Notes: generated by a model not told the origin, from the sequence alone. 64,000 nt of DNA from Rubinisphaera margarita (GCF_022267515.1 NZ_JAKFGB010000012.1:893225-957224); one strand, 5' to 3'; positions 2,687 to 43,985 are shown, counted from the stretch's first letter. Made by a program: numbers and translations.

Positions 2687-2814
2687 TCGCTTGTGTTGCC
2701 CGCCGGGTATGCGTTCAGATTATGCCGCATCGATCCACGACAACGCGAGTCAGTCAGGTATACTGATTCCTCGAGCATTTTGCCCTCCCTGAAGCTTCAC
2801 AGGCTCAATCTTTC

Positions 2815-3528
2815 ATGACAGACATCACCCGACCGATCGTTCAGATTTCACTCGACCTGACGAATATCAAGGAAGCGATCGAGACTGCTCATCTCGCCAT
2901 GCGAGCCGGGGTCGACTGGCTCGAAGCGGGTACGCCTCTCATTCTCGCGGAAGGCCTGCACGGAGTTCGCGCTCTACGGCAGGAGTTTCCCGATGTTCCC
3001 ATCGTCGCCGACCTGAAAACAATGGACGGTGGTTATCTCGAAGCCGAAATGATGGCCAAAGCCGGCGCAACGCATGTCGTCGTGATGGCCCGGGCTCACC
3101 CCGAAACGATCAAGTGTGTCGTTCAGGCGGGCCGAGATTTTGGAGCAAAGGTCATGGGCGACAACCTCGGCTGTCCCGACATGGTTGCCGGGGCGAAGGA
3201 ACTCGAAGATCTCGGCTGCGATTACGTGATTCATCACATCGGCTACGATGAGAGACGCGGCATCGCCGCAGCGGGACATCGCATGCCCAGTCCGCTCGAT
3301 CAACTGAAAAAGGTTGTTGAAGCGGTGTCTGTTCCCGTGCAGGCAGTCGGTGGGCTTTCCCTTGAACAGGCGATTGCCTGCCCGGAGTACGGAGCTCCGC
3401 TTGTGGTTCTGGGAGCTCCGCTGACCATCGATGCCGATGCCTTCAAGACGGCAGACGGGAATCTCGAAGAGTCACTCAAGTTGATCTGTGATGCGGTTCA
3501 TCAACAGGAAGTCAGGACGCGTTCATGA
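2815..3528 (+). CDS. 3-hexulose-6-phosphate synthase / 3-keto-L-gulonate-6-P decarboxylase family (OMP-decarboxylase-like TIM barrel)
   Basis: Motifs QISLDL...IVADLKTMDGG...HHIGYD are typical of the HPS/KGPDC (UlaD-like) family. Stop overlaps the next gene. Confidence 0.7.
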   Translation: MTDITRPIVQISLDLTNIKEAIETAHLAMRAGVDWLEAGTPLILAEGLHGVRALRQEFPDVPIVADLKTMDGGYLEAEMMAKAGATHVVVMARAHPETIKCVVQAGRDFGAKVMGDNLGCPDMVAGAKELEDLGCDYVIHHIGYDERRGIAAAGHRMPSPLDQLKKVVEAVSVPVQAVGGLSLEQAIACPEYGAPLVVLGAPLTIDADAFKTADGNLEESLKLICDAVHQQEVRTRS

Positions 3529-4550
3529 AATCAGCAGCCGTTGTGAATTATGCCCCCAAAAAGGGCTCCGTCGAGATCCGTGAGATCGATGTCCCCGAGA
3601 TCGGTGCAGAAGACGTTCTTCTTGAGGTCGCCAATGTCGGTGTCTGCGGCAGCGATCTGCACCAATGGACCGCCGATCATTCCTGGCCAGTCAACTATCC
3701 CGTCGTGCTTGGTCACGAATTCGGCGGGCATATCGTCAGGACGGGAGCGAATGTCGCCGGCTGGAAAGAGGGCGACCGGGTTGTCTCCGAAACAGCCGCC
3801 ATTATCAGTGCCGACAATCCGATGACCCGCCGCGGACTGTATAACTTGGATCCGACACGAAAGGGCTTCGGGTACGGCGTGAACGGCGCCATGACGAAGT
3901 ACGTCCGCGTTCCCTCTCGAATTCTTCATCACGTGCCCGACGATCTGCAGTTCGAGCAGGCCTGTCTCACCGAGCCGTGTTGTGTGGCCTACAACGCCGT
4001 GGTGAAGAACGCCAGCATCGAGCCTGGCGATCGTGTTGTTGTGCTCGGACCAGGAACAATCGGGATTCTCTGTGCCGCGATGGCCCGGTTGTGCGGTGCT
4101 CAGGTGGCTGTCGTTGGACTGCCACAGGATGCCCAACGTCTAGAGATCGCCCGACAGTACGGTTGCGATGTCATCATTGGCGATGCAACCGAATGGGCCC
4201 GCGAACGGGATGGTCTGGGCTGTGATGGGGTGATCGATGCCGCCGGAGCCAGTGCCACCTTGAAGATCGCCATCGACATCGTGCGGCCGGCCGGGTGGAT
4301 CAGCAAAGTCGGATGGGGTCCACAGCCGTTGAACTTCAATCTCGATCCCATGGTGCAGAAAAATGTCACCCTGCAGGGGAGCTTCAGTCACAACTGGCCG
4401 ATCTGGGAACGGGTTATCGCCCTGCTCGCCAGCGGCCAGCTCGATGTCCGTCCGATTATCGGCGGCGTCTGGCCGATTACCGAATGGCACGAAGCCTTCG
4501 AGAAAATGCATCACGGCGAAGTCGTCAAAGCCGTCCTCAAACCTGTCTGA
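3525..4550 (+). CDS. Zn-dependent alcohol dehydrogenase (MDR family, sorbitol/threonine dehydrogenase-like)
   Basis: Zinc and catalytic motifs VCGSDLH, GHEFGG; Rossmann motif GPGTIGIL. Confidence 0.8.
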   Translation: MKSAAVVNYAPKKGSVEIREIDVPEIGAEDVLLEVANVGVCGSDLHQWTADHSWPVNYPVVLGHEFGGHIVRTGANVAGWKEGDRVVSETAAIISADNPMTRRGLYNLDPTRKGFGYGVNGAMTKYVRVPSRILHHVPDDLQFEQACLTEPCCVAYNAVVKNASIEPGDRVVVLGPGTIGILCAAMARLCGAQVAVVGLPQDAQRLEIARQYGCDVIIGDATEWARERDGLGCDGVIDAAGASATLKIAIDIVRPAGWISKVGWGPQPLNFNLDPMVQKNVTLQGSFSHNWPIWERVIALLASGQLDVRPIIGGVWPITEWHEAFEKMHHGEVVKAVLKPV

Positions 4551-4561
4551 TTGCCTGCCTT

Positions 4562-5446
4562 ATGCCCAAGCTTGCCGCCTTCCCCAAAGCCTACATGCAG
4601 GCCCTCTGTAAAGAGGGCACGATGACCGTCTCGGAGTGGATTGACCTTGCCGCCGATCTTGATGTCGATGGCCTCGAATGGTACGCCGGCTTCCTCGAAA
4701 TGGAGGACGAGTCGAACTGGCCGAAGTTTCGCGAACAGGTTGAAGCGATCGGCAAGACCATTCCCATGATGTGCTGCTCGCCTGACTTCACTCATCCCGA
4801 CGCTTCATTTCGTGAGCGGGAGATCGAGAAGCAGAAGCGATGGATCGATATGACGCACGTCCTCGGCGGCAGCTACTGCCGCGTCCTCAGCGGACAACGA
4901 CGCCCGGAACTTTCGATCAACGAAGGCGTCGCACTAGCCGCGGCATCGATCGAGGCCTGCCTCCCCTACGCCGAAGAGAGAAACGTGACGTTGATTCTCG
5001 AGAATCATTACAAGGACGATTTCTGGGAGTACCCCGAGTTCGCCCAGAAGATGGACGTCTTCTGCCTGCTCGTCGATGCGATTCAGCATCCGAACTTCGG
5101 CGTGAACTACGATCCCAGCAACACCTACCTGGCGGGCGAAGATCCACTCGAACTGCTGAAGCGGGTCTCACATCGGGTTCTGACGATGCACGCCAGCGAT
5201 CGATACCTGATTGAAGGCACGATCGAAGATTTGCGTCGCGAAGAAGGAGGCTCAGCCGGCTACGCCAAACGCCTCCGCCACGGCGAAATCGGCCAGGGCC
5301 TCAATGACTACGATGCCATCTTCGACGAACTCCGCGGAAAGGGCTTCAACGGCTGGATCAGCATCGAAGACGGCGTGGACGGCATCGACCAGCTGAAACG
5401 GAGCGTTTCGTTTCTACGGAAGAAGATAGTCGAGCACTGGGGATAA
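4562..5446 (+). CDS. Sugar phosphate isomerase/epimerase (xylose isomerase-like TIM barrel; UlaE/SgbU-like)
   Basis: The ORF track extends upstream in a frame that overlaps the ADH gene; the first ATG after the ADH stop is at 4562 (MPKLAAF...). Xylose-isomerase-like TIM barrel residues. Confidence 0.7.
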   Translation: MPKLAAFPKAYMQALCKEGTMTVSEWIDLAADLDVDGLEWYAGFLEMEDESNWPKFREQVEAIGKTIPMMCCSPDFTHPDASFREREIEKQKRWIDMTHVLGGSYCRVLSGQRRPELSINEGVALAAASIEACLPYAEERNVTLILENHYKDDFWEYPEFAQKMDVFCLLVDAIQHPNFGVNYDPSNTYLAGEDPLELLKRVSHRVLTMHASDRYLIEGTIEDLRREEGGSAGYAKRLRHGEIGQGLNDYDAIFDELRGKGFNGWISIEDGVDGIDQLKRSVSFLRKKIVEHWG

Positions 5447-6255: not shown

Positions 6256-7125
6256 ATGCAGGGGCTTGAATCACTTCGCCAGCCGGACTTGCTGATCGCG
6301 TTCGCGGTCATGCTGGTAGCGTCGCTGGTCTGTTTCGGCCTTGGCTACTTCATCGCCGGGCGACTGACGCGTCGCGGACGCCCCCTCTTCCTGAGTCTGG
6401 TGCTGATCATGGGGGCAATCTGGTTTCTTTGGATCCAGGACGCCCCGTGGTTAATCGAGGTACTGCAAACCAGAAACGTGATTCTATACGGGAACTGGCT
6501 CAGCCTGTTTGCCGGACTGGGAGCGGGGACCGCGTTTCGCTCGATTCCTGGTTCCCTTGCTCGGCGGAGTGTGAACGCGGGTGTCTTCTTTCTGCTCGGG
6601 ATCGTCAGCCTGCTCCATCCGCTATGGGGTGATGTTCCTGTCTCGCGAAATGTCCCTGTGACCAACGGGATCTGTTTCCAGACCAGCGACGTCACCTGTT
6701 CCCCGGCCTGTGCCGCAACGGTTTTGTTGCAGCACGAGATCCCGGCAACCGAAGCCGAGATGATTCAGCTGTGTCTGACGAGAAAAGGAACGGCATGGCA
6801 GGGGCTTTATCGGGGGTTGGCACTCAAAACGGAAGGGACTCCCTGGCGGGTCGAAGTCTTCCACGGCGATTACGAAGATCTCAAGTCACTCACCCCCGGC
6901 TGGATCATTCTCAGCGTCGGTCTGCCGCAGTTCGGTGAGATCCCCAGTGTCTACGAAGACGACTATGGCTGGCGTCGGGGCGATCTGCACAGCGTCATCC
7001 TCCGAGAATTCAAAGAGGATGGCTATGTCTTGATGGTCGACCCCGACGTCGGCGAAGAGGCTTGGGCGCAGGATGATCTCAAGCTGCTGTACCGTGGCTT
7101 CGGCATGCGACTGGTGCCACGATAA
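6256..7125 (+). CDS. Membrane protein (4 predicted TM helices) with a C-terminal peptidase C39-like cysteine peptidase domain
   Basis: Start taken at MQGLESL, downstream of the ORF-track start. The motif QTSDVTCSPACAATVLL resembles the C39 catalytic Cys motif (Q..ECG.ACLAM). A His-containing segment lies downstream. Confidence 0.5.
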   Translation: MQGLESLRQPDLLIAFAVMLVASLVCFGLGYFIAGRLTRRGRPLFLSLVLIMGAIWFLWIQDAPWLIEVLQTRNVILYGNWLSLFAGLGAGTAFRSIPGSLARRSVNAGVFFLLGIVSLLHPLWGDVPVSRNVPVTNGICFQTSDVTCSPACAATVLLQHEIPATEAEMIQLCLTRKGTAWQGLYRGLALKTEGTPWRVEVFHGDYEDLKSLTPGWIILSVGLPQFGEIPSVYEDDYGWRRGDLHSVILREFKEDGYVLMVDPDVGEEAWAQDDLKLLYRGFGMRLVPR

Positions 7126-30020: not shown

Positions 30021-30097
30021 TTTCGGTTAGCTCAATTGGTCAGAGCATCAGGCTGTTAACCTGACTGTCGTGGGTTCGATTCCCATACCGATCGCCA
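30021..30097 (+). tRNA. tRNA-Asn (GUU) with two mismatches at the acceptor-stem terminus; CCA encoded
   Basis: D-arm GCTC-AATTGGTCA-GAGC. Anticodon loop CTGTTAA. T-arm GTGGG-TTCGATT-CCCAT. Acceptor TTTCGGT / ACCGATC pairs at only 5 of 7 positions. Confidence 0.65.
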
Positions 30098-31141: not shown

Positions 31142-31447
31142 TCCGGGCTTTCCAACTCGGCAAAAGGGTGGGAATTCAAACCACATTCTGACGGTAGTAG
31201 AGTTCAATAACAACCAGCAGCGTTCCGCGTGCAATCATGACTCAGCGGAAGACTCAAAGCACCTGGAACGTTACCGCCTACGACTCGTCATCATGATCGC
31301 TACTACGGCCATCTCCAGGGGCCGCTGCATTCGGTCCCATTCCCCCTCGACTGTATCTTCAGCTTCTTCCATCACATTCTCGAATAACAGCTGAACCATT
31401 CTTATCGAATACCGTCATTGTAGAAAGAAATGGAAGGGAGGTGTGAG

Positions 31448-32554
31448 ATGATCTTTTTGAAGCGTTACAAGATTCGTAGCTACGAAGTCGGTCTGTACTT
31501 CCGGGATGGAGAATTCCGAGGTCTGATCGAGCAGGGAACCCGCTGGTTGATCGATCCGCTGGGCAAGGTCCGTGTTGACGTCGTCTCGAAGCGGGATCCG
31601 TGGCTGGTTCACGACAAGCTCGACCTGATTGTCAACTCGGGTGTACTGAAGGACCGAGCCGTCGTGCTCGACCTGCAGGACCACGAACGGGCGCTGGTGT
31701 GGATTGAAAACCGATTCAGCCACATCCTGCCGGCCGGCCTCTACTCTTACTGGAATGGACAGAAGAAGGTCCGTGTTGAAGTCGTTGACGCCCGGCAGGT
31801 GCGGTTCGAGCATCCGGAACTGAAGGTGATCGCCAAGTCGCCACTGGCGCAGCGGACGCTCGACGTCTGCTCGGTCAATCGGGACCACGTTGGCGTGCTG
31901 TTCATCGATGGCCGGTATGTCGAAACACTGGCTCCGGGGCTGTACGCGTTCTGGAAGGGACAGTCGGATGCGAAGGTGGTTGAAGTCGACCTGCGGGAAA
32001 CCATGGTCGATGTCAGCGGCCAGGACATCATGACGGCTGACAAGGTCACGCTGCGGCTCAACGCCGTGGTGACTTACAAGGTCGCCGACGCCCGCAAGGC
32101 TGTCAGCCAGACCGACGACGTGCGGCAGGCTCTGTATCGTGAAACGCAGCTCGTGCTGCGAAGCGTGATTGGAGCCCGCGAACTCGATGCCTTCCTGACG
32201 GAAAAGGACGCCGTGGGAAGCGAAGTCGAGGACAACGTGCGGCGTCGAGCCGGCGAACTGGGGCTGGAAATCGCTTCGGTCGGAATCCGGGACGTGATCC
32301 TGCCGGGCGACATGAAGGACCTGATGAACAAGGTGACGGAGGCCCGTAAGGCCGCCGAAGCTAACCTGATCTCGCGTCGCGAAGAAACCGCCGCCATGCG
32401 GTCGCAGGCCAACACGGCCAAACTGCTGGCGGACAACCCGGTTCTGATGCGACTGCGGGAACTGGAAATCCTGGAAAAGCTCGCCGGCAACGGCAAGCTG
32501 AACATCGTCGTAGGCGAAAAGGGCCTGAGCGACCGGGTGGTCAACCTGCTCTGA
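31448..32554 (+). CDS. SPFH/band-7 domain protein with a three-fold internal repeat in the N-terminal half
   Basis: GGGAGG Shine-Dalgarno sequence before the ATG at 31448. C-terminal SPFH region plus a coiled-coil. N-terminal repeats carry the pattern ...PGLY..W.GQ...V.VVD. Confidence 0.7.
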   Translation: MIFLKRYKIRSYEVGLYFRDGEFRGLIEQGTRWLIDPLGKVRVDVVSKRDPWLVHDKLDLIVNSGVLKDRAVVLDLQDHERALVWIENRFSHILPAGLYSYWNGQKKVRVEVVDARQVRFEHPELKVIAKSPLAQRTLDVCSVNRDHVGVLFIDGRYVETLAPGLYAFWKGQSDAKVVEVDLRETMVDVSGQDIMTADKVTLRLNAVVTYKVADARKAVSQTDDVRQALYRETQLVLRSVIGARELDAFLTEKDAVGSEVEDNVRRRAGELGLEIASVGIRDVILPGDMKDLMNKVTEARKAAEANLISRREETAAMRSQANTAKLLADNPVLMRLRELEILEKLAGNGKLNIVVGEKGLSDRVVNLL

Positions 32555-37472: not shown

Positions 37473-38100
37473 GAGACCTGTGTGGGGAAGGATGCTATGC
37501 GGGAAGTCCGGCGTGCGGCAGGCTCTATATTAAGAGATTGTCGACCGATAAGCACGTCTCGATCTATCTTGAGTCTCGTTTTGTCGAGGATTCCTGTCAA
37601 GCAGGATTTCCCGCCCGGCTCGATCGAAGAGCCGAAATGGCTGATTGACGAGCGTCCGCTTTTCTGAATGCTCAACGATCAGGGTGGAACCTCCTCGAAC
37701 GACGAGGTCCCGGAGTCCCCATCGGCGATTAACGCGATTCCTCCAGAAACCTGATGTCACCCTCACCGATGTTAACGTGTGTACCAGGGTCCCCAGCGAT
37801 CCTGAGACGTTTCGCATCGGAGTCTTCCCCATCCACCGGCGAGCTTGTGGGGAGATCTGCCCGATTCCGCAGAGGTCTCCCGATCCGATCTTCATAACAT
37901 TTCCAACTGGCATGCACACTGCGGGGACTCGCCGTCACGGGCCTTAGCTAACAAGGTTCGCACACGCCAGGAAGCCGGCGGAGGTTCCGTTGCCCTGGTG
38001 TTGAGCGGACGAACGGAAGGCTTTCCGTTCTCAGCGATCTTAGTGAGACCGCGATGCCGCTCGGACAAGATTCAGAATTGCTTGAAGAAAGGAGTTGGTA

Positions 38101-38460
38101 ATGAACGCACTCTCATTCCGATTACTTAGCAGCCTGCTGGCGATCCCGCTGGCTTTCGCGTTTGTGTCGCCGGTCGAAGCTCAGGAGACGTACACCGAAG
38201 AGTACTACGACTCGTACTACGACGACGCTGACAATTACGACTACGACTACAACGACTACACCTGGAACGACTGGTGGGAAGACGATTACGAGTACGGCTA
38301 CTACGGCGATGATGACTACGCCTATGACGACGACTACTACGAAGACTACCGCGACGATGAGTACGGTTGGAACGACGACTGGTGGGAAGATGATTACGCC
38401 TACGCCGACGGGTACTACGACAACTACTACGACGGCGACACCTGGTGGGACTGGGAATAG
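38101..38460 (+). CDS. Secreted, extremely acidic Asp/Tyr/Trp-rich low-complexity protein
   Basis: AAGGAG Shine-Dalgarno sequence 7 nt before the ATG. Cleavable signal peptide (…PVEA/QE). The mature ~93 aa are almost entirely D, Y, W, E, N, G and show a two-fold ~33-aa repeat. Confidence 0.5.
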   Translation: MNALSFRLLSSLLAIPLAFAFVSPVEAQETYTEEYYDSYYDDADNYDYDYNDYTWNDWWEDDYEYGYYGDDDYAYDDDYYEDYRDDEYGWNDDWWEDDYAYADGYYDNYYDGDTWWDWE

Positions 38461-39834: not shown

Positions 39835-41472
39835 TTACAGTTCGACGGCTTCGACTTCCTTCACGAAGCGGCTTTCGTCACCGGACAGGAATCCACTCAC
39901 GACGTTGAACACGGCGTCACTGAAGCCGCCGATGTTCAGGATGTCGCTGCGTTCTGGAGCCTGTGAGGTTCCGTACGGCTGGATGTCGATGCAGACCAGC
40001 TTTGGTCCCGTGATGTCGCCACCCTGGAGTCGCAGCTGATTCTTCACGAAGTCCTGCCATTCGGTCATCACTCCGGTTGACCCGTAAGCTCCGTATCCGA
40101 AGGCCTGTCCGTTGCGGATCCAGCTTTCGTTATCGCTGATCAGCACGCATCCTGCGAAACGTCGATTACGATAACGGCTGTTGGCTTCTCGCAGCGGGAT
40201 CGAACAATCGGTCCCTCCTCCGCCCATTTGGCCGAGCCGCTTCGACAGACTCAGGATCGAATCGGACGGATCGAGCCGTGCGTCGTACGCGATGGTATCG
40301 AACGGCACGAGCACACTGTCCGGGTTTCGACGCAGGATCGCCGCAGCGAACAGAGCCGCCACATCGACACATCGCACGGCCGAAGTTCCCCCTCCACCGC
40401 GGTATCCGGTGACCGGACAGTTCATCGATCCCGAGGTATCGAGTCCGATTACGACCGGTCCCGGCAGTTCCGGGATGTTTCCGCAGGCAATCTCGGCTGC
40501 TCGGTGCAGCGCATCCCGGATCTTATGCGGCAACTCCGTCGACGCGTTCAGGTAGGCGGCCAGGTACTGGTACGGGAACTGTCGCGAACGTCGGATCTCC
40601 GTCGCATCGGCCACGCGGCCGGCCACGTAATCGACCATCTCACGATCTTCCAGAACCTGATGACGCAGGAGCGTATTCAGGTTCATTCGCAATGCCTGCG
40701 GCCCCATCTGTCGGGCGATGGCCTTCCAGACCTTCGGCCCCCGAGCGGCATCGGCCAGGAGATCCCAACGCACGTTCAGATCAGCCGCGACTGCAGCCTG
40801 ATCCTTCTCGCCGGTGATGCGTCGATACTTGATCAACTGCTTCAGGTCCTGCGGGAGATCGGCTTCGGTCGCCGGAGCCCACTTCTCGACGTCCTTATCG
40901 GTCAACCATCCGAACAGAGCCCGCCGCGCGTTGTCTCGCGGAGTTGGCCGAGCCAGCCGCAACACGTCGCGCAGACTTGGATCGTTCCCGATCGAAGCCG
41001 ACAGCAACTTGCTCACGGAAGCCTCGTTCAGCCAGCGCTGGAAAGCCCGCTGCAAACTCGACGACAGGCTGTTCCGACCAAACTGACCGGAACGGACCAT
41101 CTGGAACAGCGTCCGCAGGACGCGGCCGTTATCGATCACCCGATCAAAGACCTGGTGCATCAATGCGGTATCCCGAGTCGACAGCGAAGCCACCAGGGCA
41201 GCCGGCATGTCCTTCATGAAAGCCCGTTCCCGCGAATACACGGCGAGCTTTGCCAGGAAGACATTGTCATCGACCTCGTCGATCAGAGACCGCAAGGTAT
41301 CGAGCTGCGTCTGGGCGTTGGCGTAGAAGACTCCGTTAAAGCACCCGGTTGCAGCGAGCTGAGCGAGAGCCTGCTTGGCCGAGAACTTGTAAGCGGCGCC
41401 GCCCGCTTCGTTGATCGAGTTCGTACGCGGCAACAGATTCTTGAAGTTGGAGAAGAGGGACTTGTTGGCCAT
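39835..41472 (-). CDS. rsr: Ro60 ortholog Rsr (TROVE domain + vWA/MIDAS)
   Basis: N-terminal TROVE-region sequence typical of bacterial Rsr. C-terminal vWA with the motif IGLDTSGSM. Confidence 0.85.
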
Positions 41473-41604
41473 AACCGGCCTCCTTTCGACCTGAGTGGAC
41501 GAAGTGCGCAGACTCCCGTGTCATCAGATCACGGAATCAAACGTCAGCCTGCGCGAGCAGTCGACTCAGCAGCATCGGCTCGGTTCTTCGAGCCTTGTGA
41601 AAAT

Positions 41605-41708
41605 TCACTCGACGAAGGCATGAAGCAGAGTTACCGACCAGAGTCGATCCCGGCCGGGCAGGAGTTGAACCTGCGGAGTCCATGTATTCCGCTTCCGCAG
41701 TCGAGTGA
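41605..41708 (-). ncRNA. Y-RNA-like / tRNA-like structured element immediately upstream of rsr
   Basis: A 9-bp terminal helix (TCACTCGAC / GTCGAGTGA) encloses a canonical T-arm (GCAGG-TTCAACT-CCTGC) and further hairpins. No anticodon arm or acceptor stem. Confidence 0.35.
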
Positions 41709-41739
41709 GGTCCCCGACGAGGGGTTTGCCAGAGCATTT

Positions 41740-41936
41740 GTTCTTTGCGCGTCTACTGTTTCCGCCACGGCGTCCGAAGACGCCGGCAGGATTCGCACCT
41801 GCACGATCTTGCGATCACAAAGTCCTGATGGAGTCCAACATTCAGTCGGGGAATGTCAAAGCATGATCGACGAAGTGGTGGTTCAGAGTCGTTACGGTGC
41901 TCTACCTTTGAGCTACGGTGCGTCGTAAGAAAAAAT
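41740..41936 (-). ncRNA. Structured RNA region carrying isolated tRNA-like modules
   Basis: On the minus strand: a D-arm-like TAGCTCAAAGGTAGAGCA; a cUUCGg tetraloop hairpin (GGCGTC-TTCG-GACGCC); and a degenerate T-arm GCAGG-TGCGAAT-CCTGC. Confidence 0.3.
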
Positions 41937-42010
41937 GGCACCGACGGGAATCGAACCCGCAACCTCCGGATCCCAAATCATGTACTCCGAGCCGGCAGTC
42001 GATCATGTCT
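41936..42010 (-). ncRNA. Degenerate tRNA-like element (T-arm plus 3' acceptor strand only, followed by a T-tract)
   Basis: GCGGG-TTCGATT-CCCGT-CGGTGCC-A-TTTTTT. No matching 5' acceptor strand upstream; CGGTGC can pair with a downstream GCACCG. Confidence 0.3.
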
Positions 42011-42211
42011 GCTATGTCTTCAAAAGTGGCTCGACGAAGAGGTGCCGAGAAGATGCGTTCTTCACGCAATCCTTAACAGGGATGTAATCCCGGCTGGCAG
42101 TCGAACCACTGGAGCAGTTCACTCTCGTAACCGTTCCGTCCGCGAAAGGAGCAGCGTTTCAGGCGAAACAAAGCTCATTCGCGGACATCCGGTAAAGCGA
42201 TCCGCTTTAAT

Positions 42212-42282
42212 ACCCCGCCAAGGAATCGAACCTCGTCCGACTGATTCGAAGTCAGTCATGCATCCATCACACCCGCAGGGCT
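42212..42282 (-). tRNA. tRNA-Arg (UCG), 71 nt, no encoded CCA
   Basis: Acceptor GCCCTGC / GCGGGGT (two G-U pairs). D-arm GTGT-GATGGAT-GCAT. Anticodon arm ACTGA-CTTCGAA-TCAGT. T-arm CGAGG-TTCGATT-CCTTG. Confidence 0.6.
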
Positions 42283-42291
42283 TGCAGAGTT

Positions 42292-42624
42292 TCAGTTTTT
42301 CGTTGTTCTCCAATACTCGTCGGCGTTCTCCAGAGCCGCCCGCATCAGACGGGATCCTTCGATGTTGGCCGAGTGAATTGTCCAGGTTAGTTGCGATAAC
42401 TCGCCGTAGTAGGCTCGTTCTTCAATCCATTTCGCGACGTCGTAACCGGTTTGCGTTGTTCCCAGATCGTGATCCAGTGACACCCAGGCGACGTTGTTCG
42501 ACTTGAGCCGACTGATCGCCGCATCTGCAGTCCTCACCCAGATCATGCCCGGTTCCGCACCGAACAGTTCCTGGATCTTCCGATTGTTCGGATCCCGCTC
42601 GTCATCGAGCCAGAGATTGATCAT
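42292..42624 (-). CDS. Small receiver (REC)-fold-like protein embedded in the tRNA array; possibly a cyclic-phosphate-processing receiver-like domain as seen in RNA-repair neighbourhoods
   Basis: AAAGGA Shine-Dalgarno sequence 5 nt before the ATG. Alternating beta/alpha pattern with acidic residues at predicted strand ends: MINLWLDDER (strand 1) and VAWVSLDHDLG (strand 3). Confidence 0.5.
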   Translation of the reverse strand: MINLWLDDERDPNNRKIQELFGAEPGMIWVRTADAAISRLKSNNVAWVSLDHDLGTTQTGYDVAKWIEERAYYGELSQLTWTIHSANIEGSRLMRAALENADEYWRTTKN

Positions 42625-42651
42625 GCAGTCCTTTCTTCAGGTCGCGAGAAA

Positions 42652-42721
42652 CACGAGCGTGAGGAGTCGAACCCCATGCGTTCGCTTTGGAGGCGAACTG
42701 CTCTCCCAGGAGCACACTCGT
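42652..42721 (-). tRNA. tRNA-Trp (CCA), 70 nt, slightly irregular (short D-loop, missing nt 9)
   Basis: Acceptor ACGAGTG / CGCTCGT. D-arm GCTC-CTGGGA-GAGC. Anticodon loop CTCCAAA is identical to bacterial tRNA-Trp. T-arm TGGGG-TTCGACT-CCTCA. Confidence 0.55.
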
Positions 42722-42725
42722 CCAA

Positions 42726-42799
42726 TGGCTTTGGTGGGATTCGAACCCACAGCATCGCTGTGTCTGAGACAACGTGGTCTACCGATTGCCTACAAAGCC
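42726..42799 (-). tRNA. tRNA-like element with a CAG anticodon loop (Leu-like) but an unpaired D-stem and no long variable arm; probable pseudo-tRNA
   Basis: Perfect acceptor GGCTTTG / CAAAGCC and T-arm GTGGG-TTCGAAT-CCCAC. Anticodon arm GTTGT-CTCAGAC-ACAGC. No D-stem pairing can be found. Confidence 0.4.
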
Positions 42800-42831
42800 G
42801 TTTCGTGCCCACTGTTGTTGAGGGACATCAG

Positions 42832-42906
42832 TTGCGGCGGCAGGAATCGAACCTGCGTCAGAACGGTTCAGAGCCGCCCGCCCGTACCAGCACGAGCACC
42901 ACCGCA
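42832..42906 (-). tRNA. tRNA-Gln (CUG), 75 nt
   Basis: Acceptor TGCGGTG / CGCCGCA. D-arm GCTC-(10 nt)-GGGC. Anticodon arm GGCGG-CTCTGAA-CCGTT. T-arm GCAGG-TTCGATT-CCTGC. Confidence 0.55.
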
Positions 42907-42918
42907 TCATCTCTTCAA

Positions 42919-42989
42919 AGCGCCCAGCGGGAGTCGAACCCGCACTCCCGCCATGGCAAGGCAGCAGGCTACCGCTACATCATGGGCGC
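42919..42989 (-). tRNA. tRNA-Gly (GCC), 71 nt
   Basis: Acceptor GCGCCCA / TGGGCGC. D-arm ATGT-AGCGGTA-GCCT (one mismatch). Anticodon arm CTGCC-TTGCCAT-GGCGG. T-arm GCGGG-TTCGACT-CCCGC. Confidence 0.55.
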
Positions 42990-43013
42990 GATTCAGAGGC
43001 TTCGCCTCCTGAA

Positions 43014-43086
43014 TGGGATCGGACGGATTCGAACCGTCACCGTTCCGGTTAAGAGCCGGACATGCCGCCGCTAACACCTCAATCCC
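43014..43086 (-). tRNA. tRNA-Lys (CUU), 73 nt
   Basis: Acceptor GGGATTG / CGATCCC. D-arm GTGT-TAGCGGCG-GCAT. Anticodon arm TCCGG-CTCTTAA-CCGGA. T-arm GACGG-TTCGAAT-CCGTC. Confidence 0.65.
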
Positions 43087-43110
43087 AGGTTGACCTTCTT
43101 CGTAATAAAG

Positions 43111-43183
43111 TCGGGATGGCCGGACTCGAACCGACGATCGCGTGCTCCCAGGGCACGTGGGGTAGCCGCTCCCCGACATCCCG
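43111..43183 (-). tRNA. tRNA-Pro (UGG), 73 nt (C at position 33)
   Basis: Acceptor CGGGATG / CATCCCG. D-arm GGGG-AGCGGCTA-CCCC. Anticodon arm CGTGC-CCTGGGA-GCACG. T-arm GTCGG-TTCGAGT-CCGGC. Confidence 0.6.
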
Positions 43184-43397
43184 TTAACTGCTTTCACTTA
43201 ATGGAGCTGTAAACTCCGAGTAACTCTCGATCGAAAGCGGTTGAGTTCTTTGCTGAGTGCCTGCCGGCATTAGCCTGTCCGCGTTCGATCGGAGCCGGGC
43301 GGAATGCATGTCCGAAGAAGGCGAAGAAACGTCGATACGAATTGCGGATGAAGGTTGTCACGGTCGTCGATTCCGAAATGGGCTGACTGTTTACTGA

Positions 43398-43470
43398 TGA
43401 CCCGTGTGGGATTCGAACCCAACCTGACCAGCTTGAAAGGCTGGTGACCTCACCAGAAGTCGAACGGGCC
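43398..43470 (-). tRNA. tRNA-Glu (UUC), 73 nt
   Basis: Acceptor GGCCCGT / ACGGGTC. D-arm GACT-TCTGGTGA-GGTC. Anticodon arm CCAGC-CTTTCAA-GCTGG. T-arm TTGGG-TTCGAAT-CCCAC. Confidence 0.65.
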
Positions 43471-43500
43471 GTAGTGTCCTGAAACGCCGAAGTCCGGGCG

Positions 43501-43531
43501 TAAAAAAAGCCCGGTGCGTGTGACACCGGGC
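43501..43531 (-). terminator. Minus-strand intrinsic terminator hairpin 27 nt upstream of the tRNA array
   Basis: Stem GCCCGGTG-(7 nt)-CACCGGGC followed by TTTTTTT on the minus strand. Confidence 0.55.
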
Positions 43532-43985
43532 TGACAGGAAGTCTCCAGTCAGAGCATCGGTCACAAACGCAAATCCTCACTCGGGCCGCCGGGCTCGCGG
43601 CGAAGGCGTTCCATCTGCATGGTGGGGTTCTCAAGAATCATCGAACTGAGTTCTGCCTGTCAAAAAGTGTTAGCCGTTGTCATGGTGACTGGTCTTCACC
43701 AGCTTCTGCACTACAGACGCCAGTCAGCGGGAAAAGGTTCGTCAGGAAGTGTGAGATTTTCGGAAAAGTTGGGATGCGCGAAACCAGCCACGGTCGATCA
43801 CCGACGTCATCGGTCTCAAGGGAATCCCTTCCCCGGCGAGCCGCTTCCTGTCGGTGACGCGACTGAGACGTGCATGTCTGAGTCATTCTGTGTGGCTCCA
43901 CACCGCGCAGCTTCCCCAGCTGAAACTCCTCTCGGATAGCGAAGCCGATTTGACGAGGTGGCTTAGCCACTGTACCATCTCCGCT

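Follow-up and report, generated by a model that had tools for sequence, protein, structure and literature searches.

A block of co-oriented genes occupies ~3.8 kb of the minus strand of the window, the 64-kb stretch of the Rubinisphaera margarita genome that was analyzed here (NZ_JAKFGB010000012.1:893225-957224). The block consists of a small leader open reading frame (ORF), an intrinsic terminator, eight tRNA genes with a cREC gene among them, four Y-RNA-like genes, and rsr, which encodes an orthologue of Ro60 (Table 1). tRNA genes were called with ARAGORN and scored with the Rfam model RF00005, whose gathering score is 29 bits. A search with an alignment of planctomycete Ro60 proteins found 371 relatives in a species-representative genome collection, and 80 loci were fetched and labeled L001 onwards. 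The Ro60 proteins at these 80 loci are 71-96% identical to the window protein. The closest relative is L001 (Ro60 96% identical), and it is the reference for all comparisons of conservation in the window. The evidence from R. margarita itself covers 64 kb of its genome.

Table 1. Features of the minus-strand block, listed in the 5' to 3' direction of that strand.
Feature	Coordinates	Strand	Remarks
Leader small ORF	43561..43641	-	26 codons from ATG 43641 or 19 from ATG 43620
Intrinsic-terminator hairpin (AGCCCGGTG...CACCGGGCT) + T7	43501..43532	-	hairpin 43532-43508; 30 nt before tRNA-Glu
tRNA-Glu (UUC)	43398..43470	-	first array gene; ARAGORN; Rfam 46.4 bits; 100% identical to L001
tRNA-Pro (UGG)	43110..43183	-	ARAGORN; Rfam 50.8 bits; 97.3% identical to L001
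tRNA-Lys (CUU)	43013..43087	-	ARAGORN; Rfam 49 bits; 97.3% identical to L001
tRNA-Gly (GCC)	42919..42989	-	ARAGORN; Rfam 52.8 bits
tRNA, anticodon CUG (Gln)	42831..42906	-	76 nt; ARAGORN; 100% identical to L001
Class-I 'Leu' tRNA, anticodon CAG	42726..42799	-	74 nt; ARAGORN; Rfam 46.2 bits; 97.3% identical to L001
tRNA-Trp (CCA), atypical	42652..42721	-	ARAGORN; Rfam 31 bits against gathering score 29; 100% identical to L001
cREC_REC protein, 110 aa	42292..42624	-	in the 370-nt spacer between tRNA-Trp and tRNA-Arg; Pfam PF20274
tRNA-Arg (UCG)	42211..42281	-	last array tRNA; ARAGORN; Rfam 41.8 bits
Ya	42020..42112	-	closing stem 5' CGACUG/3' UCGUCG, two internal hairpins, no tRNA-like domain; YrlB-like
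Yb, YrlA class	41862..42005	-	Ro-binding closing stem + tRNA-like domain (T arm, acceptor-like stem-loop, D arm)
Yd	41710..41852	-	closing stem CCCCGAC/GUCGGGG with a T-arm-like hairpin inside
Yc	41600..41712	-	last Y-RNA-like gene before rsr; fold z-score -3.6; weak YrlA match
rsr 5' leader	41473..41599	-	fifth CGACUG motif at 41563
rsr (Ro60 orthologue, 545 aa)	39835..41472	-	TROVE PF05731 + vWA_Ro60 PF25045

Of the nine tRNA genes that ARAGORN finds in the window, eight share the minus strand and are packed into 42211-43470 (1.26 kb). Because there is just one tRNA elsewhere in the 64 kb, this density on one strand far exceeds chance. Seven of the eight array tRNAs pass the RF00005 threshold, with scores from 31.0 to 52.8 bits. 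The remaining one, the Gln-CUG element, shows in Rfam only a sub-threshold match to tRNA-Sec (32.1 bits against a gathering score of 47); it escapes the tRNA model on account of its 6-bp D stem. The spacers, in the order from Glu to Arg, are 214, 22, 23, 12, 31, 4, and 370 nt. Remnants of tRNAs were searched for in the 214-nt Glu-Pro gap and in the 98-nt gap between tRNA-Arg and Ya, and none was found there. The first-pass annotation, made from the sequence alone, had described at least seven tRNAs plus pseudo-tRNAs, oriented with and toward rsr, separated by 4-32 nt at all spacers except one and without encoded CCA. The array is real, and it is co-oriented with rsr and points toward it, as described. 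It contains eight tRNAs, none of which deserves the pseudo label, and most of its spacers are short, with two long ones, Glu-Pro and Trp-Arg, instead of one. CCA is indeed encoded in none of the eight tRNAs. This absence is uninformative; eight of the nine non-array tRNAs of related loci lack CCA too, and the missing CCA was thus rejected as a sign of foreign origin.

Comparison of the fetched loci indicates that tRNA arrays lie upstream of rsr across Planctomycetota. The upstream flanks of the 80 planctomycete rsr genes contain 596 co-oriented tRNAs and a single opposite-strand tRNA in 339 kb, against six co-oriented and two opposite-strand tRNAs in 376 kb of downstream flanks. Arrays were counted at the 56 rsr loci whose upstream sequence reaches 3 kb or more. 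Of these, 41 have one or more co-oriented tRNAs, 37 have three or more, and at least 12 have 20 or more; the flanks end at 6 kb, and the counts of large arrays are therefore lower bounds. The largest arrays are those of L028 (39 tRNAs), L010 (36), and L059 and L078 (31 each). The arrays of the different loci together cover all 20 amino acids. L028 alone covers 18, and the two that it lacks, Phe and Met, are both represented in other arrays.

Gene order in the arrays is conserved far above shuffled controls, and all eight window tRNAs are collinear with the 39-gene array of L028. The best sequence matches of the window tRNAs are array tRNAs of other loci. For example, tRNA-Gly(GCC) is 92-98% identical to array Gly-GCC genes of distant loci. 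On the other side of rsr, no conserved gene is common to more than three of the 80 loci. The order upstream is fixed, and the downstream genes differ in almost every genome; therefore, the conserved unit is the array, the Y RNAs, and rsr. Judged by this collinearity, the window block is a deletion-reduced member of a long supernumerary planctomycete tRNA array, fused to a Y RNA-rsr module. The first-pass annotation had taken the array to be an uncommon one of the mobile-island type. It is instead a reduced, collinear copy of the array seen upstream of rsr across the phylum.

Planctomycetes keep a syntenic canonical Trp-EF-Tu-Thr-Gly-Tyr-Thr cluster, which often contains the only canonical Trp tRNA; apart from it they have "degenerate" clusters, each with 2-28 low-scoring tRNAs and probably dispensable (Kim et al. 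2016, PMC4807772). The genome of Rubinisphaera brasiliensis has 44 tRNAs with a single Trp gene (PMC4807772). Supernumerary L-arrays have also been listed for Planctomycetes, along with other phyla (Santamaria-Gomez et al. 2021, PMC8421152). In the fetched loci, array tRNAs score ~43-62 bits with Rfam, against 60-70 bits for four non-array tRNAs in the same loci. Two metagenome-assembled genomes each have one array-bearing and one array-less rsr (L015/L051 and L010/L067), and strain SH139 has two array-rsr copies, L066 and L069, which lie ~200 kb apart (CP197414) in nearly the same order. Indirect evidence favors the array as a supernumerary spare set and not the sole copies of these genes, because the number of genes varies from 0 to 39, loci are duplicated, scores are lower, and the canonical cluster is located elsewhere (PMC4807772). 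An ordinary housekeeping tRNA operon, next to rsr by chance, would also be conserved and under purifying selection, as this block is, and tRNAs without encoded CCA are normal for the phylum. The variation in presence and copy number among relatives, the lower scores of array tRNAs, and the tRNA complement of R. brasiliensis, with its one Trp gene and the Trp-EF-Tu cluster outside the array, make such an operon extremely unlikely.

The rsr-linked arrays resemble the degenerate clusters, the L-arrays, and the array units of Tran et al. (2016, PMC4758250) in their dense, co-oriented, supernumerary tRNAs with lower covariance scores. Further features in common are a canonical tRNA-Ile(UAU) found only there, an HNH endonuclease gene, variable size, patchy presence, and RNA-processing neighbors. 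An array unit is defined by at least 20 tRNAs at two or more per kb (PMC4758250). The window array has this density, and its eight tRNAs are fewer than the number; the arrays of L028, L010, L059, L078, and L004 (29-39 genes) are array units by this definition. Ro60/TROVE or Y RNAs beside the arrays are not mentioned in these three papers (0 occurrences in PMC4807772, PMC8421152, and PMC4758250). In the planctomycete array, polarity and order are fixed with respect to rsr, and a conserved leader ORF and terminator come first, while the Anabaena array is under promoter-repeat control.

The window tRNAs are far better conserved than the sequences between them. The eight tRNAs differ from those of L001 by 8 mismatches in 584 nt (98.6% identity), against ~139 differences in 636 nt (~78% identity) for spacers and leader; adjacent spacers range from 55 to 92%. 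Each of the eight is 97-100% identical to its L001 counterpart, including the two odd elements, Gln-CUG and Leu-CAG. The 33 aligned orthologues of tRNA-Arg(UCG) all have the same anticodon; pairing is intact in 99.6% of cells, and compensatory changes are seen at 11 of the 21 pairs. These comparisons demonstrate purifying selection on every array tRNA, by which a functional structure appears to be maintained.

The two odd elements belong to families of array tRNAs. The Gln-CUG tRNA is 87-90% identical to the 76-nt Asn-GUU family of the arrays, which has the 6-bp D stem. With its U1:A72 pair, it is placed by the alignment clearly nearer to this family than to the main array Gln-CTG family. An anticodon switch in the tRNA at 42831-42906 is therefore apparent from its Asn-GUU-like body. 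Gln-CUG on an Asn-GUU body is common to the window, L001, and L080 (95-169). In bacteria, tRNA-Leu normally has a long variable arm, and the short Leu family of the arrays is without one. The Leu-CAG element is a member of the array short Leu-UAG family, with a Leu-type D arm and A73. It had been described as a Leu-CAG-like element unable to form a D stem. A D arm is present, Leu-type with a short stem, and is conserved in the short Leu family; the element is under the same purifying selection as the other array tRNAs, which contradicts the "pseudo-tRNA" label. "Leu" tRNAs of 73-79 nt with other anticodons (Leu-TAG, TAA, CAA, and GAG) are observed in the arrays of L008, L020, L027, L028, L038, L049, L066, and L078.

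The array could be an eroding relic, in which a horizontally acquired, dispensable cluster is decaying in Rubinisphaera and the adjacency to rsr is a historical accident. Only 8 of at least 39 ancestral genes are left in the window, and relatives have anything from none to 39. The low Rfam scores, the switched anticodons, and the selfish inserts in the arrays (HNH endonuclease, group II intron, and IVS-protein genes) are also as expected for a relic, and such clusters have been termed degenerate and probably dispensable (PMC4807772). What makes decay quite unlikely is the contrast between tRNAs and spacers described above, which extends to the two odd tRNAs. Cloverleaf pairing is kept by compensatory changes across the phylum, and the orientation and order relative to rsr and the dedicated leader are conserved.

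The 740 nt between tRNA-Arg and rsr contain four tandem Y-RNA-like elements, Ya, Yb, Yd, and Yc. Each of them starts with CGACUG and ends with UCGUCG, and the two motifs pair into a closing stem. Ya has a fold z-score of -3.0 and a weak match to YrlB, and it is 97.8% identical to L001. The match of Yb to Rfam YrlA (47.6 bits, E 1.3e-8) falls short of the gathering score, 69 bits. Homologues of Yb are found upstream of rsr on the same strand in ~58 loci (~62 matches). In a 40-sequence alignment of Yb, RNAalifold predicts 31 pairs, of which 14 are compensatory, and all helices are supported by covariation. Purifying selection on Yb, a YrlA-class Y RNA by its predicted structure, is thus demonstrated by the alignment. 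Homologues of Yd are present in L025, L028, L010, L029, L022, L007, and L037 (E 1e-20 to 1e-13), and homologues of Yc in ~30 loci. All YrlA matches, those of the window as well as those of 11 related loci, stay below the Rfam gathering score, and planctomycete Y RNAs therefore go unannotated.

In the Ro60-Y RNA module (Chen et al. 2014, PMC4201824; RF02553, RF02565), tandem Y RNAs share the strand of rsr and lie no more than 4 kb upstream of it, as they do here. Yb is located 390 nt upstream of rsr and has the placement and the arms by which Y RNAs were recognized in that study; it shares with YrlA the T arm, the acceptor-like stem-loop, the D arm, and the Ro-binding closing stem. The CGACUG of the window resembles the motif GNCGAAN0-1G, but C replaces the last A. 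By these features, the four elements are predicted to be Y RNAs as described by Chen et al. (2014). The block differs from the module of that study in having four Y paralogues, a tRNA array ahead of them, and a Yb that scores below the Rfam threshold. Hits overlapping tandem tRNA genes were discarded by Chen et al. (2014).

The adjacency of the array to tandem, tRNA-mimicking Y RNAs fits another explanation, in which the array products are non-translational tRNA-like RNAs that serve as Ro60 ligands, decoys for tRNA-targeting enzymes, or raw material of Y RNAs. Several structures are atypical (the 6-bp D stem, Leu without a long variable arm, and low scores), and a sponge role has been proposed for Anabaena array tRNAs (PMC8421152). 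However, the pooled arrays cover 20 amino acids with anticodons conserved at specific positions, and the tRNAs retain 7-nt anticodon loops and identity features, for example A73 with the Leu-type D arm. The tRNA-Ile(UAU) found only in these clusters is canonical. A purely non-translational role is therefore very improbable.

The product of rsr aligns with the structure of Deinococcus radiodurans Rsr (PDB 2nvo) over residues 20-532 with E 1.6e-19, and also with 9nen and 1yvp. It is 100% identical to the NCBI Rubinisphaera margarita TROVE protein, and identity across Planctomycetota is 71-79%. The score against the NCBIfam Rsr equivalog is 87.9 bits, under the cut-off of 900 bits; therefore, the protein is a divergent Ro60 orthologue. 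The Ro60 gene that had been noticed downstream of the array is thus full-length, with TROVE and vWA domains and homology to 2nvo. The 5' leader of rsr is 96.1% identical to L001, which is above the identity of the rsr coding sequence. The CGACUG at 41563, as read from the sequence, could pair with CUUCGUCCAC just before the ribosome-binding site and form a Y-RNA-like stem. This potential stem hints at autoregulation by Ro60. Between tRNA-Arg and Ya, a hairpin at 42120-42205 on the minus strand has a folding energy of -40 kcal/mol and a z-score of -4.3. It was rejected as a conserved element, as L001 has an unrelated 318-nt sequence in its place.

At the other end of the block, the array is preceded by a leader ORF and the terminator. 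The first-pass annotation had placed an intrinsic terminator ahead of the array, and the hairpin followed by a T-run bears this out; it had not included the leader ORF, the cREC gene, or the four Y-RNA-like genes. The leader ORF ends with ...LRL-stop inside the motif TTGTGAC, and its length and stop position are the same in L001. The 90 nt before tRNA-Glu are far better conserved with L001 than the sequence farther upstream. The same arrangement is found before the first tRNA (Phe or Glu) in 12 loci: the window, L001, L004, L010, L013, L018, L019, L020, L050, L054, L055, and L064. The leader ORF was recovered in all of them except L054 and L055, where the evidence is motif alignment only. The ORF ends with (P)LRL-stop or RLM/LLM-stop within a nearly invariant TGTGAC motif. 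In L010, L019, and L050, it has 33 codons and a common N-terminus, M-x-(S/F)-LWSS. A hairpin (CCCGGTGTC...GACACCGGG) with a T-run follows ~45 nt past the stop motif. The terminator motif is observed once per locus, always ahead of the first tRNA and never inside the array. Across loci, 94.7% of its cells are paired, with three covarying pairs.

In trp and his attenuators, the 3' end of a short ORF overlaps an antiterminator strand that competes with an intrinsic terminator placed immediately ahead of the regulated genes. The leader of the block may be arranged in the same way. Its stop-codon region, (G)UGAC(AC), can base-pair instead with the 5' terminator arm (GGUGUCAC). Across the 12 loci, this alternative helix shows 90.6% pairing, compared with 14-56% in slid controls. 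When the 3' arm of the terminator is left out, the leaders of L010 and L004 have the antiterminator as their fold of minimum energy. The leader is thus a candidate translation-coupled attenuator of the operon, a proposal of moderate strength. It differs from trp and his attenuators in that the regulated genes are tRNAs, noncoding RNAs, and rsr, and the leader is without an obvious run of a single codon. The putative logic would be general, with failure of translation turning the block on. No minus-strand terminator was found between 43508 and the stop codon of rsr, and internal terminator-like sites are sparse in the related loci (28 in 159 kb).

The cREC gene lies within the window array. Its product matches Pfam PF20274 over the full length with E 3e-25 and 89.2 bits, against a cut-off of 27. 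The cREC family is predicted to process 2',3'-cyclic phosphates and is linked to RNA ligases in phages and cells (Iyer et al., PMC7824862). The same Trp-Arg slot holds cREC in L001 and L092 only. Apart from the L092 slot, tblastn finds L001 only and one weak hit elsewhere, and cREC was rejected as a part of the core module.

Other genes are observed as passengers of the arrays, in L009, L015, L018, L027, L030 (including 4771-4847), L038, L043, L050, L081, and L092. HNH endonuclease genes recur between His and Trp or Thr; they are also associated with cyanobacterial L-arrays. The further passengers are an SPFH/Band-7 protein between Arg-CCG and Arg-UCG, a SEC-C motif peptide, and a group II intron. 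Antisense 23S_rRNA_IVP genes, encoding four-helix bundles, recur within the arrays. In L001, an insertion of 1.7 kb (2781-4521) between Leu and Trp encodes a protein of ~270-280 aa without a Pfam match, and this protein recurs inside the arrays of L009, L059, L066, and L069.

Taken with what is known of Ro60 and of L-arrays, the parts of the block are consistent with a common role. Ro60 and PNPase act on structured or damaged RNA in Deinococcus and Salmonella, and Y RNAs mimic tRNA (PMC4201824). The L-array of Anabaena is silent; translation inhibitors induce it together with rtcB, and it aids survival (PMC8421152). It is reasonably probable that the block is a kit for translation stress and tRNA damage, in which attenuator-switched spare tRNAs would be co-expressed with Ro60 surveillance. 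The block would be a single transcription unit, from a start upstream of the leader through to rsr, because no minus-strand terminator intervenes. When translation is efficient, a ribosome at the leader stop codon would mask UGUGAC(AC), the terminator would form, and the block would be largely silent. When translation is impaired, the unmasked UGUGAC(AC) would pair with the 5' arm of the terminator, the antiterminator would form, and RNA polymerase would read through. The spare tRNAs would be freed by RNase P and RNase Z and finished by CCA addition. The Y RNAs would assemble with Ro60, and structured RNA that is misfolded or damaged would be cleared. The cREC protein of the Rubinisphaera lineage, by its predicted activity, may open the 2',3'-cyclic phosphate ends of cleaved RNA.

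Several observations weigh against this proposal. The linkage is not obligatory: rsr and Y RNAs are present without an array in 15 of the 56 loci, and the L092 array has no rsr within 6 kb. The redundancy of the eight anticodons is judged from relatives and the literature, the R. margarita sequence being 64 kb. Covariation of the alternative pairing is modest, with two compensatory cells, a number reached by 17 of 500 shuffles. The window leader can form just 5 bp of the antiterminator, which is not its predicted fold. The invariant TGTGAC could be conserved instead for the peptide or the stop codon. No sigma-70-type promoter was identified on the minus strand, though planctomycete promoters may not fit the consensus. 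No RtcB, RtcA, RtcR, or other ligase or repair gene was found near the block; in this search, some neighboring ORFs were analyzed with Pfam and the rest were judged from their translations only. Finally, cREC is confined to the Rubinisphaera lineage.

The block could also be a mobile counter-defense cargo, brought by a phage or an island to supply cleavage-resistant tRNAs and repair against anticodon nucleases, along the lines suggested in the first-pass annotation. Ro60 homologues were compared on IMG/VR viral contigs and in named phages. On three IMG/VR contigs (74-275 kb), a Ro60 homologue lies beside 22-33 tRNAs, and in Myxococcus phage Mx1 it lies among tRNAs. The IMG/VR contig L081 has a Ro60 67% identical to that of the window and the same array, beside genes for a serine recombinase and ParB. 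Contigs with phage-like content (RRF, Thg1, and the anti-Pycsar Apyc1), measuring up to 614 kb, also carry homologues of cREC. The genes downstream of rsr vary between genomes, and tRNA arrays have been discussed as anti-defense elements (PMC12803027). The first-pass annotation had stated that jumbo mycobacteriophages pair large tRNA arrays with a Ro-like protein. Ro-like genes do occur among the tRNA clusters of large phages, as in Mx1 and the three IMG/VR contigs. In the cluster C phage Myrna, the nearest tRNAs are ~9 kb away.

In Mx1, the cluster C mycobacteriophages (Myrna), and the IMG/VR contigs, the Ro60 homologue is on the strand of many tRNAs, with HNH endonuclease and tRNA-related enzymes nearby, which is similar to the planctomycete block. 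The phage Ro proteins are, however, only 22-40% identical, and the phage tRNAs either are scattered among protein genes or follow on the downstream side of Ro60. Their order is unrelated, and a leader of the planctomycete type is absent. A search of the window for signatures of horizontal origin gave nothing: GC content is flat, an anomaly in GC content or skew as the mark of an island was not found, and no phage or integrase genes flank the block. The identity of Ro60 across planctomycete orders (71-79%) and the fixed order of the array fit long residence over recent transfer. As the explanation of the present block, mobile cargo is unlikely, and it overlaps the stress-kit reading instead of excluding it; as history, a mobile counter-defense origin is plausible. 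On the IMG/VR viral contigs L087 (512 kb), L088 (229 kb), and L089 (32 kb), a suppressor-type tRNA (CUA or UUA) is located ~1.2 kb upstream of a Ro60 homologue on the same strand (6758-6830, 6777-6865, and 6815-6887, respectively).

The block also resembles the Salmonella rsr-yrlBA-rtcBA operon (Hughes et al. 2020, PMC7790460). Both combine rsr, Y RNAs, and an enzyme for 2',3'-cyclic phosphate RNA ends, and both have the theme of tRNA damage. Unlike the Salmonella operon, the window block has no RtcB, RtcA, or RtcR, and its candidate for end processing is cREC, whose activity is predicted. Control also differs: a sigma-54 activator in Salmonella, against a putative leader attenuator in the window block.

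The components of the block are already known separately: degenerate or L-type planctomycete arrays, YrlA-type Y RNAs, Ro60, and cREC. No paper joining Ro60 or Y RNA with tRNA arrays was found in the literature searched. Provisionally, three observations are without precedent in that literature: the polar, phylum-wide fusion of array, Y RNAs, and rsr; the dedicated leader ORF and terminator; and the strong purifying selection on "degenerate" tRNAs. The locus joins two puzzles, the purpose of long "cryptic" tRNA arrays and the targets of bacterial Ro60 and tRNA-like Y RNAs. Their conserved physical, and probably transcriptional, fusion suggests that arrays and Ro60 serve one process, the upkeep of the tRNA pool under translational stress or nuclease attack. 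Array tRNAs were once dismissed as degenerate and are under strong purifying selection, and the shared leader offers a concrete regulatory hypothesis that is testable. A wider claim is possible, if rather doubtful: that throughout the phylum a full alternative tRNA set, Y RNAs, and Ro60 form one operon under a translation-sensing leader-peptide attenuator, and that the tandem of tRNAs and Y RNAs preserves the route by which YrlA originated from tRNAs. If so, a failure of ribosomes would induce the spare decoders and, along with them, the machinery for clearing damaged or misfolded RNA.

Among neighboring ORFs analyzed with Pfam, there is no match just downstream of rsr, and GntR/UTRA and planctomycete PSCyt/PSD1 domains are found elsewhere. 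The ORF at 38095-38460 on the plus strand, which has no Pfam match, has a signal-peptide-like start and a low-complexity tail rich in Tyr, Asp, Trp, and Glu (YYDSYYDDADNYDYDYNDY...). An SPFH gene is located at 31430-32554 on the plus strand; it is only 24% identical to the SPFH genes inside arrays and was rejected as their relative. Its 79%-identical orthologue lies ~2.7 kb past the array of L092, a JGI contig of 157 kb. This array has 17 tRNAs, with the arrangement His-HNH-Trp-cREC-Arg-Arg-Cys and no rsr or Y RNAs downstream. The layout suggests rearrangement or loss of rsr in this relative.

The window tRNA outside the array is an Asn-GUU gene at 30021-30097 on the plus strand, which scores 58 bits with Rfam. 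Unlike every array tRNA, it encodes CCA. Its top two acceptor pairs are mismatched (U1·C72 and U2·U71). It could be an unusual gene, a rearranged copy, or an att-site copy.

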